Shown in pieces: positions 48,899 to 60,186 of a stretch of 64,000 bases of DNA. The translations under genes and the position numbers were made by a program. The stretch is taken from assembly GCA_965203355.1 (NCBI GenBank), contig OZ241889.1, positions 1,280,001 to 1,344,000 of the forward strand. The letters run 5' to 3'. Numbering within the stretch: position 1 is the first letter of the stretch; each line of letters opens with the position of its first letter. Origin of the DNA: Candidatus Latescibacterota bacterium (GTDB lineage: Bacteria > Latescibacterota > UBA2968 > UBA8231). The notes under the pieces were generated by a model. The model ran no database searches. It was not told the origin of the DNA and saw nothing but the letters and a program-made list of their open reading frames with translations.

Positions 48899-48915
48899 TT
48901 GGCACGTTTTTCGCT
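48899..48915 (+). promoter_or_regulatory. sigma54 (-24/-12) promoter upstream of the RiPP precursor
   Basis: TTGGCACGTTTTTCGCT: GG-N10-GC, close to YTGGCACG-N4-TTGCW; IHF-like ACTCAATTATTTA at 48837-48849. Confidence 0.65.
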
Positions 48916-49068
48916 TTTATTCCCGCTGAAGCCTCAGCCGTGCTTCACAATATCAGCAGTATTAAAACATGGAAGCAAACAGAAGGTCGGCTGTTGCTCC
49001 ATTGCTGCTGTGTCGCATTTCAACCGACTACCAAACTAATGGCTGGTCCAGCCAAGGAGGAAAGCAAG

Positions 49069-49176
49069 ATGAAGCTCAGAATCGTATCTAAGCCTTTTGA
49101 AGGCTATATGTCGCCGGCAAGGCCCAAGAGTGCCTGCTGCTCCTGTCACTGTAACTGTTGTAGTGTCTGCTATTAG
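49069..49176 (+). CDS. RiPP (LAP/TOMM) precursor peptide, 35 aa, MKLRIVSKPFEGYMSPARPKSACCSCHCNCCSVCY
   Basis: AAGGAGG RBS before ATG 49069; Cys/Ser-rich C-terminal core; directly upstream of the azole synthetase genes. Confidence 0.88.
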   Translation: MKLRIVSKPFEGYMSPARPKSACCSCHCNCCSVCY

Positions 49177-49262
49177 TTACTATGTGAGATCTGCGATTGC
49201 ACATTATATCACTATGAAATATATTTTACGGCTGAGGATATTTTAATTATAAACGGTATTAT

Positions 49263-49300
49263 CCTGCCCGTAGTATTCTACGTTGATTACTACGGGCAGG
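49263..49300 (+). terminator. Stem-loop after the precursor gene (leaky terminator or mRNA-stabilising hairpin)
   Basis: CCTGCCCGTAGTA / TACTACGGGCAGG perfect 13-bp stem, weak T-tract. Confidence 0.7.
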
Positions 49301-49402
49301 GCTTATACTTAGCCTGAGACAAACGTCCTATTACTGCTGTGTATTGCATCAGCAGTTCGCGGCCAACTATGGTCAGCTAAATCACGCTAACCAGAAGAGA
49401 GA

Positions 49403-57045: not shown

Positions 57046-57122
57046 TCGCAATGGATGAGATCTCGCTATTAGCCGAGCCGTATCGCCGATAGAATAGCAC
57101 AGCGGTAGGCTCCCGAATTACT

Positions 57123-57146
57123 ATAGAGCACAAAATAGAGCACAAA
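57123..57146 (+). repeat. Two tandem copies of ATAGAGCACAAA upstream of the TonB-dependent receptor
   Basis: Directly visible. Confidence 0.7.
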
Positions 57147-57170
57147 AGCACCCTATCGCTGGAGACCATT

Positions 57171-59387
57171 ATGCGTTGGCTAGGGCTGGTTTCACTTTTT
57201 AACATCTGTTTTTCTTTGCCTGCCTTTGCCCAAGTTAGGGCTTTCGTCCAAGGCCAGGTCGTCGACGAAACCGACCGACCGATGGCCTTCGTCAACGTAC
57301 AAATCGTCGACACCACCGACGGCGCAGTAACAGCCCGCGACGGTCGCTTTGCCTTTTCCACTCAGCACCTCGGTCCACGCGACCTGAGTGCCTCCTTCAT
57401 CGGCTTTGAACCCGCCCGGCAGACTCTGCATTTGACGGCGGGCGATACCACCACGGTGCGCTTGATGCTGCGGAGTATCCTCATTGAACTCGGCGAAACC
57501 GTCGTCACTGTTAGCACCTATACCACTGGAGAGGATGAGACCGTTACTTTGGCCCCCCTAGATGTGGTTACAACGCCTGGGGCTTCTGCCGATATTTTTC
57601 GTGCGTTCAAAACCTTTCCCGGCGTTGCCACCGTAGATGACGGTGCCGGGCTTTTTGTCCGGGGGGGCGATGTGAGCGAGACCGTTATCTTGCTCGATCA
57701 AGCCACGGTAGTGCATCCCTACAGATACGAATCGCCCACTGGTGGAGTATTCGGCACGATTCCTCCCTTTATGGTGAAAGGTACGGCCTTTTCCACCGGC
57801 GGATTCTCCGCCCGCTACGGCAATGCGCTTTCTGCGGTGCTGACAATGGAGAGCCTAGACATGCCCGTGCAACGAAGCTATACGCTCGGTCTGGGCCTTG
57901 CTGCTGGCTCTGTGGGCTTCGACTTGCCTCTTGTTGAGGACAAGCTCGGCCTTCGTTTTACGGGCAACCGCAGCTTTACCGGTCTCCTCTTCCACGTCAA
58001 TGGTCACCGCGACAAATTCGCCACCACGCCACGCGGGTACGACGGTAATCTCAACTTGGTTTACCAATATTCGCCTACCGGACATCTCAAGTTTTTCGGT
58101 TTTAACGCGAGCGACGAGGTCGGCGTACAGGTTGCAGAGCCTTCGTTTGACGGCCTTTATCGCAACAGCACGGATAGGGCCTTGCACAATCTCCAGTGGA
58201 CGGATGTTTGGGCCGATTGGGCCATACAGACCAGTGCCTCGCTCAACCAGTACAAAACCCGGCGACAATTGGGCAATCTAGATTGGACCCCTCGCGACCT
58301 GACCGGCAAAATTCGCACAGACTGGGAACGCGTCCTCGATGCCTTCGGGATCTTGCGCCTCGGTGCTGAAATAGAGTACGCTGACAACCGCTTTGTAGGC
58401 AGCATTCCTCAAGGAGACATTTTCGACCCCGAGGCCGAGATTTTTGCACTCGACAACTCCTACGGTGAACGGCGCACGGGTGCCTACTTTGAGGTTGATT
58501 TCAAACCCGTGCGCCGCATTGTCGCCAATGTCGGGATGCGCACCGATCACCACAATTTATCCAGCGATTTTGTCGTCGACCCGCGTCTATCTGCCCGATA
58601 CCAGTTCTCAGAAGACACCAATGCCCGACTCGCTTGGGGCATCTATCACCAATTTCCCGCCCCACTTGAATACAATCCCATCAGCGGCAATCCCAATTTA
58701 GACCCCCAACGCGCCCAACACTGGATAGGTGGCCTGCACCACGAGCGCGGGGAACTCCTAGTACGGCTGGAGGCTTACTACAAACCCTACCGCAATCTGG
58801 TGCTAGATGACGCCGAGCGGAACCTTGCAAGTGAAGGTAACGGCCAAGCCGCTGGAGTTGACTTCTTTTGCAAATACGGTGCTTTTCTCAATACGCGCTT
58901 GAGCGGATGGATGTCCTACAGTCTGCTGAGATCGCGCCGGTTGCAGGTGCGCCATCTAGGGTTTGAGATGCTCCGCGAAGAAGCACCTTCGCCGTTTGAT
59001 ATCACGCACAATCTGACCTTAGTCACAAAAATGCAGATCGTTCGCACCCTTAGCGGCGGTCTGACTCTGAAGTACGCCACTGGTCGTCCCATCACGCCAA
59101 TCGTCGGTGCCGTTCCCGCAACAGACAAAAGCTACTACTTGCCGGTGGAAGGACCCGTCGGATCAGAACGGCTACCGTCCTTTCAACAGATAAATGGGCA
59201 GTTGAGCTATGTGCATTTTTTTAACGCCGGGCACCAAGCGGTCTTCTATTTGGCGGTCAACAACCTGCTCAACCGCGCCAACGTGCTCGACTATGATTAC
59301 AGCATTGACTATACCCAGCGTCAGCCACGCACCACGCTCTTTCGCCGGTCCATTTACTTTGGCACCAGTGTTTCCTTGAACTATTGA
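57171..59387 (+). CDS. TonB-dependent receptor with N-terminal carboxypeptidase-regulatory-like domain
   Basis: Signal peptide; G.V.DE..P..FVNV; PGV, VRGG, GGFSARYGNALS plug; NLLN..N near the C-terminus. Confidence 0.92.
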   Translation: MRWLGLVSLFNICFSLPAFAQVRAFVQGQVVDETDRPMAFVNVQIVDTTDGAVTARDGRFAFSTQHLGPRDLSASFIGFEPARQTLHLTAGDTTTVRLMLRSILIELGETVVTVSTYTTGEDETVTLAPLDVVTTPGASADIFRAFKTFPGVATVDDGAGLFVRGGDVSETVILLDQATVVHPYRYESPTGGVFGTIPPFMVKGTAFSTGGFSARYGNALSAVLTMESLDMPVQRSYTLGLGLAAGSVGFDLPLVEDKLGLRFTGNRSFTGLLFHVNGHRDKFATTPRGYDGNLNLVYQYSPTGHLKFFGFNASDEVGVQVAEPSFDGLYRNSTDRALHNLQWTDVWADWAIQTSASLNQYKTRRQLGNLDWTPRDLTGKIRTDWERVLDAFGILRLGAEIEYADNRFVGSIPQGDIFDPEAEIFALDNSYGERRTGAYFEVDFKPVRRIVANVGMRTDHHNLSSDFVVDPRLSARYQFSEDTNARLAWGIYHQFPAPLEYNPISGNPNLDPQRAQHWIGGLHHERGELLVRLEAYYKPYRNLVLDDAERNLASEGNGQAAGVDFFCKYGAFLNTRLSGWMSYSLLRSRRLQVRHLGFEMLREEAPSPFDITHNLTLVTKMQIVRTLSGGLTLKYATGRPITPIVGAVPATDKSYYLPVEGPVGSERLPSFQQINGQLSYVHFFNAGHQAVFYLAVNNLLNRANVLDYDYSIDYTQRQPRTTLFRRSIYFGTSVSLNY

Positions 59388-59409
59388 TCTTCACTAAAAG
59401 AGGCTATTT

Positions 59410-60186
59410 ATGCTACACTTTCTGCTCTCACTCGTTTGCATTGTCGCAGTCGCCGATCCCACCCTAGCCCGATCGGCCGACAGTCTTATCATCCGTGGAA
59501 GACAGATGCTGCAAGCCGGTGAAAGTGCGAATGACCTAGACACTATGTATGCCGCTAGATCAACGTTTGAGCGCACCCTCGCCGACACGGGCCTAGCGGC
59601 GTGGGGCCACTACTACGTCGCTTTAGCCGATAACAGCATTGCTGGTCTATTAGGGGAAGCAAGCAAAGACCGGGCTTCTGAACATCTCAAAGCCGCGGTT
59701 GATCACTTGAAAAAGGCTACCGAGATTGACCCGCAAGCAGCCGAAGCCTATGCCTTGCTGTCGATCGTGTACGGGCAGCAAATCGGCCTGAGTCCTATGA
59801 AAAGCATGTTCATAGGCCCCAAAATTGGAAAGGCCAGCCAGAAAGCCAAGCAACTCGCTCCCGATAATCCGCGCGTGGTACTGAGTGCGGCCATCAGCGA
59901 TTTTAATACCCCCGAAATGTTTGGCGGAAGCAAAGAAAAGGGTCGGCAAGGGTTTCAGCGAACTACCGAACTCTTTGCCCAAGAAGAGCCGACCGATCCC
60001 ATCCAGCCAGTATGGGGGCACCGGGAAGCCTACGCTTGGCTCGGCATCGCTTACCAAGACCGAGGTGAGCTGGAGTCGGCACGAGCGGCCTTTGCAAAGG
60101 CGCTTGAAATCGATCCAGATTTTGGTTGGGTCAAGTACTGGTTGCTGCCCGAGTTGGAAAAAGCCAATGCACCGGATGCGCCGTGA
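59410..60186 (+). CDS. Secreted TPR-repeat protein
   Basis: AAGAGG RBS; signal peptide; AYAWLG.AY...A...F.KALEIDP; PDNPRV, TPEMFGG. Confidence 0.85.
   Translation: MLHFLLSLVCIVAVADPTLARSADSLIIRGRQMLQAGESANDLDTMYAARSTFERTLADTGLAAWGHYYVALADNSIAGLLGEASKDRASEHLKAAVDHLKKATEIDPQAAEAYALLSIVYGQQIGLSPMKSMFIGPKIGKASQKAKQLAPDNPRVVLSAAISDFNTPEMFGGSKEKGRQGFQRTTELFAQEEPTDPIQPVWGHREAYAWLGIAYQDRGELESARAAFAKALEIDPDFGWVKYWLLPELEKANAPDAP

Follow-up and report, generated by a model that had tools for sequence, protein, structure and literature searches.

The window analysed here is a 64,000-nucleotide stretch of the Candidatus Latescibacterota contig OZ241889.1 (positions 1,280,001 to 1,344,000), and between 48.9 and 60.2 kb it carries ten co-oriented plus-strand genes, from a precursor peptide gene through to a tetratricopeptide repeat (TPR) protein, that were recognized from the list of open reading frames (ORFs) together with Pfam and NCBIfam matches. 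We consider it likely that these genes make up a functional linear azole-containing peptide cluster of sponge-associated Latescibacterota, with the mechanism proposed below taken as a whole. The cluster is real and intact, is probably functional as judged from its genes, and would give this uncultured phylum of sponge symbionts a conserved, apparently intact natural-product pathway. Its most unusual parts are a family of poly-Cys precursors, a dehydrogenase that seems to be split between two proteins (B and B′), and a module made of an ATPase-TPR fusion, a receptor, and a TPR protein.

The scheme that we infer for its chemical steps, leader cleavage, transport direction, and bioactivity would run as follows. 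A sigma54-type promoter, together with a conserved leader RNA, would drive expression of a 35-aa precursor (relatives have one to three precursors), whose 17-aa leader would be bound by the E1-like C protein. Using ATP, the YcaO protein would cyclodehydrate the core cysteines to thiazolines, and a heterodimer of the SagB-type dehydrogenase with the non-catalytic B′ would oxidize these to thiazoles, giving a short, very hydrophobic (poly)thiazole peptide. A CPBP protease would cut off the leader and/or protect the producer, while an ABC-2 permease and an ATP-binding cassette (ABC) ATPase would take the peptide across the inner membrane, with the TPR tail of the ATPase holding the cargo. A secreted TPR paralogue and an Oar-like TonB-dependent barrel would then, most likely, carry it through the outer membrane, and the product would most likely be membrane-active or antagonistic, acting against competitors or in dealings with the host.

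The nine protein genes, with one or more precursor genes, lie in the same order in all 16 full-length related loci (L001–L013, L015, L023, and L024; we refer to loci and genomes by handles of this kind), and because the same ten genes recur in this way the arrangement is far beyond chance. Fifteen of the 16 have flanks in common with the window: upstream lies a ParE/ParC-like pair, and downstream follow a DEAD helicase gene and gltX. The remaining locus, L023 (YcaO 63% identical), has different flanks, namely a glycosyltransferase gene and a second CPBP gene upstream and a transposase-like helix-turn-helix gene downstream; as it keeps all ten genes in this other setting, the genes move as a unit. 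An earlier note on this stretch had read ten co-oriented genes of these families, in this order, from the letters, and both that reading and the synteny across related metagenome-assembled genomes (MAGs) hold.

All nine enzyme and transport genes are intact in the window, and from B′ through the ATPase neighbouring genes are at most 15 nt apart or overlap. A 226-nt spacer follows the precursor gene and carries, ahead of the C gene, a hairpin with 19-nt arms (49263..49300, + strand) that could be an attenuator or a processing site. A similar hairpin is found in three of five loci tested; it has no T-run, and a terminator search did not pick it up.

Precursor peptides and modifying enzymes

The precursor gene (49069..49176, + strand; MKLRIVSKPFEGYMSPARPKSACCSCHCNCCSVCY) encodes 35 aa plus a stop and was recognized as an ORF with a ribosome-binding site, AAGGAGG, located 7 nt 5′ of the start. 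Its product consists of a 17-aa leader, MKLRIVSKPFEGYMSPA, a short spacer, and the core ACCSCHCNCCSVCY. A search with the leader pattern returned 29 precursors in the window and 15 loci, with one to three at each locus, and L023 adds one with a GTG start, which brings the family to 30 members in 17 places. Each of the 30 has a strong ribosome-binding site, and they share the leader MKL[RK]IVS[KN]xFxGYMSPA while their Cys-rich cores differ. The leader is followed by a variable spacer of 3–25 residues rich in G, S, D, T, E, and K, by a core with either 5–9 Cys in a row or a mix of C, H, N, and S (CCSCHCNCC and CCCCCHCHCC are examples of Cys/His cores), and by a hydrophobic C-terminal tail of 4–10 residues, so that the precursors of relatives measure 35–55 aa. 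In the precursors of L004, L005, P0405, and P0407 a Gly linker precedes the Cys run. The F-x-x-x-M of the leader resembles FxxxB, which we take to be a motif in the leaders of streptolysin-type precursors.

When 5.8 billion proteins were searched with a profile, only ten called proteins came up, all of them members of the precursor family and just one of them with a name, "hypothetical protein"; in the NCBIfam scan no model, SagA-type models included, matches the precursor. As judged from their sequences, the precursors form an unnamed family of about 40 predicted natural substrates, a set that could be used for heterologous reconstitution of contiguous polythiazole peptides.

Upstream of the precursor gene lies a sigma54-type promoter-like motif, TGGCACGTTTTTCGCT (TGGCAC-N5-TCGC; 48900..48915, + strand), which was read from the letters and has one mismatch to the consensus. 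By itself the motif is not above chance, with three matches in the window against 2.2 expected; it is kept, however, in 15 of 15 aligned upstream regions, and rpoN was found in all three related genomes searched, which supports the sigma54-like promoter proposed in the earlier note. Between the motif and the precursor start is a conserved 5′ leader of about 155 nt (48912..49068, + strand) with a mean column identity of 90% in an alignment of 15 sequences, one per species, and we take it to be non-coding because its indels are not multiples of three. It is more conserved than the adjoining coding genes. A structured RNA in this leader was considered and dropped, as an Rfam scan of 48400–49500 gave no match, a covariation test gave 0 of 42 pairs, and the folding energy is ordinary (z −1.39, with 21 of 200 shuffles folding as well). 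The leader also holds CAGCAG...CTGCTG segments that are similar as well as complementary to stretches of Cys codons, and at loci with several precursors partial copies of the leader seem to precede the extra precursor genes.

The C protein (49403..50518, + strand), an E1/ThiF-like cyclodehydratase partner and the putative binder of the leader peptide, matches the ThiF family above the Pfam cut-off (PF00899, E 1.5e-12). Its best NCBIfam match is the SagC-family model TIGR03603 (52.8 bits, below the cut-off of 187.65), it also matches TIGR03882 (E 1.1e-4), and its nearest solved relative is MccB (E 3.7e-7). The D protein is a YcaO cyclodehydratase (53174..54637, + strand; PF02624, E 1.1e-51 over residues 93–444) that scores 216.1 bits against TIGR03604, 3 bits under the cut-off of 219.25, and ends in ...KPGPVPFP, where PGPVP forms a PxPxP motif. 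More than 50 database clusters, almost all unnamed, hold relatives of this YcaO protein at 74–92% identity, and more distant relatives at 44–59% identity (P0060–P0074) include one from a Bacteroidota-labelled MAG. Among the matches listed, the nearest relatives with a name are all actinobacterial, a 35% identical protein from Streptomyces among them, and the nearest Atlas clusters come from Actinomycetota; the best plasmid-borne YcaO protein is 26% identical (E 7e-22). No protein named SagD is among the best 120 matches listed. The CPBP (CaaX-like/Rce1-like) intramembrane protease (54653..55369, + strand; PF02517, E 4.1e-18), a putative leader peptidase and/or immunity protein, shows EEVLWR, FGMNH, and HQVFN, which we take to be the motifs of the CPBP family. 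The locus therefore holds the parts by which a linear azol(in)e-containing peptide (LAP), or thiazole/oxazole-modified microcin (TOMM), cluster is recognized: a YcaO cyclodehydratase as D protein, an E1-like C protein beside it, and an adjacent short precursor with a Cys/Ser/Thr-rich C-terminal core.

The two remaining enzyme genes would serve in the oxidation of azoline rings. B (51403..52377, + strand) is a SagB-type dehydrogenase dependent on flavin mononucleotide (FMN) that would convert azolines to azoles; it matches PF00881 (E 1.2e-21), the Protein Data Bank (PDB) entry 3eo7 (E 1.5e-26), and TIGR03605 with 146.5 bits, well over the cut-off of 78.4. The 267-aa B′ encoded just upstream (50596..51399, + strand) has no Pfam match and falls below the TIGR03605 cut-off (22.3 bits against 78.4), with a match confined to its residues 180–260 and profile positions 91–171, so that the first, FMN-binding half of the SagB model is not recognizable in it. 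Neither BLASTP (E 0.26) nor hhalign (probability 0.2) gives a significant match when B′ is set directly against B. An exhaustive search for the B′ family found 199 relatives at E ≤1e-3 and 99 at ≤1e-10, mostly of 250–290 aa and including a Spirochaetota-labelled one, and 48 of 92 aligned members weakly match the SagB model.

An AlphaFold2 model of B′ built from an alignment of 15 orthologues was unusable (pLDDT, the predicted local distance difference test score, of 45.8), and a 92-row alignment, used instead, gave a model with a pLDDT of 91.1. Foldseek matches this model to the tandem protein 3eo7 (E 2.8e-9), McbC (1.1e-7), ThcOx, and BmdC, and since these are nitroreductase-fold proteins we assign that fold to B′. 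When B, FMN, and B′ were modelled together the complex scored 0.77, and the best of three controls scored 0.01; the mark used is reached by 58 of 80 solved complexes and by 2 of 110 mismatched pairs. At least 38% of contacts recur between runs, the partner pLDDT is at least 65, and the predicted interface is formed by the central helices (B 249–264, B′ 206–222). Nitroreductases are classic dimers, and the pass may reflect this well-known property of the fold.

Additionally, B keeps RTSIRDF and WKYG, whereas B′ has no counterpart of RTSIRDF and has WRYM in place of WKYG; we take the Lys-Tyr pair to be catalytically important in SagB-type dehydrogenases. B′ is predicted to be the non-catalytic half of a pseudo-dimeric dehydrogenase formed with B. 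Among the best 150 of the 199 relatives listed are two natural B′::B fusions, P0153 (609 aa) and P0265 (586 aa), which have the order of the two window genes, with 33% identity between the C-terminal half of P0153 and the complete B protein of the window. Because the family is widespread and such fusions exist, we regard B′ as a split form of the known two-domain SagB-type dehydrogenase. Of the second, degenerate B protein described in the earlier note, the nitroreductase fold is thus retained, while its being peculiar to this cluster is contradicted by the 199 relatives and the fusions. B′ would be a widespread partner of SagB-type dehydrogenases and may explain why some of these enzymes are hard to reconstitute.

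A separable transport module

The transport genes, all on the + strand, encode an ABC-2 type permease (52391..53164; PF01061, E 1.9e-19), a DrrA/NodI-like ABC ATPase with a fused C-terminal TPR-like module (55366..57045; PF00005, E 4.6e-28, plus TPR matches), a TonB-dependent outer-membrane receptor of Oar-like architecture (57171..59387), and a secreted TPR-like protein with TPR matches of its own (59410..60186). The ATPase-TPR fusion is found in 16 of 16 loci with a length of 558–564 aa. The downstream TPR protein is a paralogue of the ATPase tail, with 38% identity (E 4e-60) to the last 228 residues of the fusion, and its N-terminus is signal-peptide-like. The receptor matches PF00593 (E 1.9e-17) and PF13715/PF13620 (about 1e-14) over their cut-offs and the Plug family weakly (E 0.0052, 17.7 bits against a cut-off of 23.9). 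It runs from a signal peptide through CarboxypepD_reg, a TonB-box-like GETVVTV, and the weak plug to the barrel, and its N-terminal motif LIELGETVVTVSTY is conserved in 21 of 21 aligned sequences and resembles what we take to be the TonB box consensus.

Seven further contexts (L025–L031) show that the transport genes are a separable module, and that the pair of receptor and TPR protein is independent of the thiazole genes. In L026 the permease, ATPase-TPR, receptor, and TPR protein form a four-gene unit without C, B′, B, YcaO, or CPBP, and L027 is a decayed cluster with the tails of B and CPBP and the head of the receptor, in which the permease, the ATPase-TPR, and the TPR protein are intact. 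L028 and L030, located at the same site between ParE and DEAD/gltX, keep the last 68 residues of the ATPase-TPR along with an intact receptor and TPR protein, L029 and L031 have the receptor and TPR protein alone with no TOMM genes, and L025 (G001:C1:3075607-3076347) has a TPR paralogue alone, no other protein of the window cluster being matched there. The earlier view of the ATPase-TPR fusion, the receptor, and the TPR protein as additions to a cytolysin cluster therefore gives way to that of a module which also occurs without TOMM genes. Genomes that bear the cluster hold a further stand-alone TPR paralogue elsewhere, at 62–71% identity. A 1.1-kb insertion with a host-like GC of 0.58 separates the ATPase-TPR gene from the receptor gene in L008 (L008:13882-15013) and likewise in L009, L014, and L015; inspection by eye suggests that it encodes a multi-pass membrane protein and a small winged-helix regulator.

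Several observations weigh against a single functional cluster that reaches from the precursor to the last TPR gene. Besides the dimer caveat on the B–B′ model given above, the C protein, YcaO, and B′ all score below the cut-offs of the curated SagC, SagD, and SagB models, and YcaO is broken in two (G002 and G137) of the 21 genomes that have it, so the cluster is dispensable. The remaining points concern the receptor and the TPR protein. The receptor carries a TonB-box-like motif and a plug, a combination that in most known cases means import. The pair stands alone in L029 and L031, stays intact in L028 and L030 where the biosynthetic genes have been lost or replaced, and has a host-like GC content of 0.55–0.57, compared with 0.41–0.50 for the biosynthetic genes, whose low GC is alike in all nine loci examined. 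In the window itself the values are 0.43–0.50 from the C gene through the ATPase gene, 0.55 for the receptor and TPR genes, and 0.57–0.60 for the flanks. In view of the stand-alone pairs, their survival after gene loss, and this host-like GC, their link to the peptide may be only positional.

It is possible, although we lean against it, that the cluster proper stops at the ATPase-TPR and that the receptor and secreted TPR protein are an independent host uptake system lying downstream. In addition to the observations just given, this would fit the occurrence of the TPR family in 58 of 167 genomes of the phylum against 21 of 167 for YcaO, and the 125-nt gap ahead of the receptor gene, which is where the 1.1-kb insertion sits. 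However, the pair accompanies the cluster into the different context of L023, the cluster's own ATPase has a tail paralogous to the secreted TPR protein, and in L026 all four transport genes form one unit.

A distinctly less likely alternative is that the product is a secreted, metal-binding public good, a metallophore that is a peptide made by the ribosome and modified after translation (RiPP) with methanobactin-like logic, which would leave by the ABC-2 pump and be re-imported by the receptor and a periplasmic TPR protein, so that genomes with only the receptor would be cheaters. Metallophore loci typically combine biosynthesis, an exporter, and a TonB-dependent receptor, a layout that this cluster matches. 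Cys- and His-rich cores such as the two examples given above, the TonB-box-like motif, and the retention of the receptor where biosynthesis is lost would all suit such a role. Yet Pfam and NCBIfam matches reveal no gene for metal regulation or handling in the cluster, and many of the orthologous cores are pure poly-Cys with a hydrophobic tail, whose thiols the adjoining dehydrogenase would remove. Furthermore, the ABC-2/DrrA-type pump has no importer partner, and the TPR module is also present on the cytoplasmic ATPase, which is a better fit to one-way export.

Returning to the reading of the locus as an azole peptide cluster, an export role for the receptor is conceivable because Oar, a TonB-dependent transporter with the same N-terminal extension, is required for PopC secretion in Myxococcus xanthus (PMC6434023). 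The Oar subclass has a CarboxypepD_reg extension, a plug, and a 22-strand barrel, and Oar and the receptor, in which the plug is matched below its cut-off, appear to have the same domain order of signal peptide, CarboxypepD_reg, TonB box/plug, and barrel; the comparison is one of architecture, the Oar cargo is a protein, and the available text of that account describes no ABC pump or TPR partner (PMC6434023). The presence of TPR paralogues both on the ATPase and in secreted form would suit the one-way relay of a single cargo. In its fullest form, this suggests a two-membrane export route for the modified peptide in which the TPR tail of the ATPase would load the pump, the secreted TPR protein would receive the cargo in the periplasm, and the TonB-energized barrel would release it, with low-GC cassettes swapped by recombination upstream of the module, which would act as a fixed docking site; taken together these elements are speculative and, we think, rather improbable as a set. 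The swapped cassettes would be the thiazole block in the window and, in L028, another low-GC block (0.37–0.51; L028:1379-9486) that fills the space with a glycosyltransferase/transglutaminase-like gene, a GT2-TPR gene, a stand-alone C39 peptidase gene, a CPBP gene, and a Yip1 membrane protein gene, and which may be a different secreted-peptide cassette. If true, this would be the first case of a RiPP secreted in a TonB-dependent way, and a testable answer to how a hydrophobic modified peptide passes the outer membrane of a diderm.

Distribution, selection, and exchange

The distribution rests on related sequences rather than on the window's own genome. A scan of species-representative genomes found 16 loci, 14 of them in MAGs titled Latescibacterota or Latescibacteria, one in a Gemmatimonadetes-titled genome, and one in a Poribacteria-titled genome, where the locus is a 2.2-kb contig; this agrees with the diderm host of an uncultured lineage proposed in the earlier note. 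A metagenome scan added only one further locus. The stretch itself is contained in six sequencing runs from three studies, two of the runs being labelled sponge metagenome.

The low-GC biosynthetic block is under purifying selection. Against four relatives, the ratio of nonsynonymous to synonymous substitution rates (dN/dS) is 0.09–0.36 for all nine enzyme and transport genes, including C (0.12–0.17), B′ (0.10–0.17), and YcaO (0.09–0.12). We think it highly improbable that the cluster is a decaying relic without current function. In the closest relative, G002 (L013:10001-11461), a TAA near codon 384 breaks the YcaO reading frame, in G137 (G137:C1:140052-141549) YcaO is split in two, and decayed or replaced versions of the cluster are found in L027, L028, and L030, as expected of a relic; at the two broken-YcaO loci the neighbouring genes look intact. 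On the other side, all nine genes of the window are intact and constrained, and conservation extends to the ribosome-binding sites, the promoter motif, and the leader. The synonymous rate (dS) is up to about threefold higher in the low-GC genes (49403–57045) than in the receptor and TPR genes (57171–60186), with values of 1.38 for YcaO and 0.43 for the receptor in the comparison with L008. This contrast is in line with histories that were separate or with a difference in mutational regime.

To compare histories, we built trees from the concatenated flanking genes (ParC, ParE, DEAD, and GltX) and from the block (C, B′, B, permease, YcaO, and CPBP) for the window and 14 loci, with L014, L016, L023, and L024 excluded as partial or differently flanked. 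The two trees conflict, as L007 and L012 group with L008, L009, and L015 in the flank tree and with L010 and L011 in the block tree. Approximately unbiased (AU) tests reject the other tree's grouping both for the biosynthetic data (p = 1.1e-5 and 3.6e-4) and for the flank data (p = 0.009 and 0.018), although the groups under test were picked from the opposite tree once both were in view. The precursor core types agree with the biosynthetic-gene tree. Together, the tree conflict, the core types that track the block tree, and the cassette replacement in L028 point to exchange of the low-GC block among lineages at a fixed site. Cassette exchange of this kind among symbiont lineages is a pattern typical of antagonistic traits.

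The type IIA topoisomerase pair directly upstream (44633–48486, minus strand), which is divergent from the cluster, raises the question of whether the product could be a microcin-B17-like poison of gyrase or topoisomerase, with the adjacent GyrB/GyrA-like genes as a resistant copy of the target. McbC is among the structural neighbours of B′, in line with such a product, but the evidence on the pair makes this barely credible. All three related genomes examined have exactly two PF00521 genes, for a GyrA of about 840 aa and a 629-aa protein, and with just these two the pair is the only topoisomerase-IV-like copy rather than an extra one. It is 82–96% identical across loci, like the other housekeeping flanks, it is absent beside the cluster in L023, and it is still present where the cluster has been lost (L028). 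Copy number, L023, and L028 thus largely refute target-copy immunity, and the pair does not qualify as an immunity element.

The GyrA/ParC-like protein of the window (44633–46522, minus strand) has only 629 aa, compared with about 840 aa for GyrA elsewhere, and probably lacks most of the usual C-terminal domain. Next to it, between the M3 peptidase gene and the ParC-like gene, lies an island with a GC of 0.39 (41799–44550, minus strand) that is made up of the genes for a BanI-type restriction enzyme (PF24447, E 7e-109) and an N4/N6 DNA methylase. One or both are matched in 6 of 14 syntenic loci (L001, L003, L004, L010, L012, and L013), so we regard the island as a variable insertion; the peptidase gene is closer to ParC in L002, L005–L008, L011, and L015, and L009 has neither match.

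Relation to known systems

The earlier note's description of an apparently complete azol(in)e RiPP cluster with a streptolysin-S-type set of a stand-alone C protein, D protein, B protein, CPBP protease, and ABC exporter is supported. Published reports of LAP clusters in the phylum consist, in the available text, of antiSMASH "LAP" calls in sponge Latescibacterota MAGs, reported as counts (PMC12993501, PMC9426513). These calls come from the same phylum and habitat, and the accessible parts of both papers leave the precursor, B′, the transport module, and the distribution undescribed (PMC12993501, PMC9426513). Our literature search on Latescibacterota LAP clusters returned such antiSMASH-level mentions only, and the supplements of PMC9426513, PMC11832590, and PMC12993501 may list the cluster; the same search brought up no account of B′ heterodimers or of a TOMM cluster that has a TonB receptor.

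For the dehydrogenase, the closest comparison is with the two-domain SagB-type dehydrogenases (PDB 3eo7, 511 aa) and McbC, which have the nitroreductase fold in common with B and B′. In the 586–609-aa fusions the two halves correspond to B′ and B in the same order, while in the window the halves are separate genes; a likeness to the first half of the SagB model is no longer recognizable in B′, which has WRY where B has WKY.

Two uncharacterized TOMM groups described by Cox et al. (2015, PMC4603692) have features in common with the cluster. Faecalisin, from Enterococcus, has a Gly linker and a Cys-repeat core, and propionisin, from Propionibacterium, has a cytolysin-like core and several CaaX proteases. 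In both, as in the window cluster, the C and D proteins are discrete and ABC transporters are present. The Gly-linker and Cys-run cores mentioned above recall faecalisin, as compared by description, and the second CPBP gene in L023 parallels the several CaaX proteases of propionisin. For neither group does the available text of that paper describe a TonB receptor or TPR module.

The closest likeness is to the sag, clos, and lls clusters of Firmicutes and Spirochaetes, which have in common with the window cluster discrete C and D proteins, SagB, a CaaX-like/CPBP protease, and an ABC exporter, as well as a short precursor, sometimes one of several, with a Cys-rich core and a variable tail (PMC4603692). 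According to the part of that paper available to us, the cytolysin family is defined by a discrete cyclodehydratase, a dehydrogenase, an ABC transporter, and a CaaX-like protease, its core by a Gly followed by at least ten contiguous heterocyclizable residues, and its D proteins by their grouping with SagD at a BLAST E below 1e-54 (Cox et al. 2015, PMC4603692). The window cluster has this gene content, but its core departs from the definition, as the longest Cys/Ser/Thr run in ACCSCHCNCCSVCY is four; in some relatives such runs reach 11, as in TSSCCCCCCCC of L003. With a core run of at most four, no SagA-type match, and actinobacterial kin for YcaO, the label "cytolysin-like" holds as an analogy only. 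The names of these nearest relatives suggest, indirectly, that YcaO may stand apart from SagD.

Compared with the streptolysin S type, the window cluster has another precursor family, an additional B′, a single permease paired with a TPR-tailed ATPase, an outer-membrane receptor and a secreted TPR protein, and a diderm host from an uncultured phylum. The suggestion of a new system goes too far; what the cluster represents is a new branch within a known, streptolysin-S-like kind of peptide. On the evidence of its genes, we therefore file it as a LAP/TOMM cluster that would work like the streptolysin S type, but as a branch of its own.

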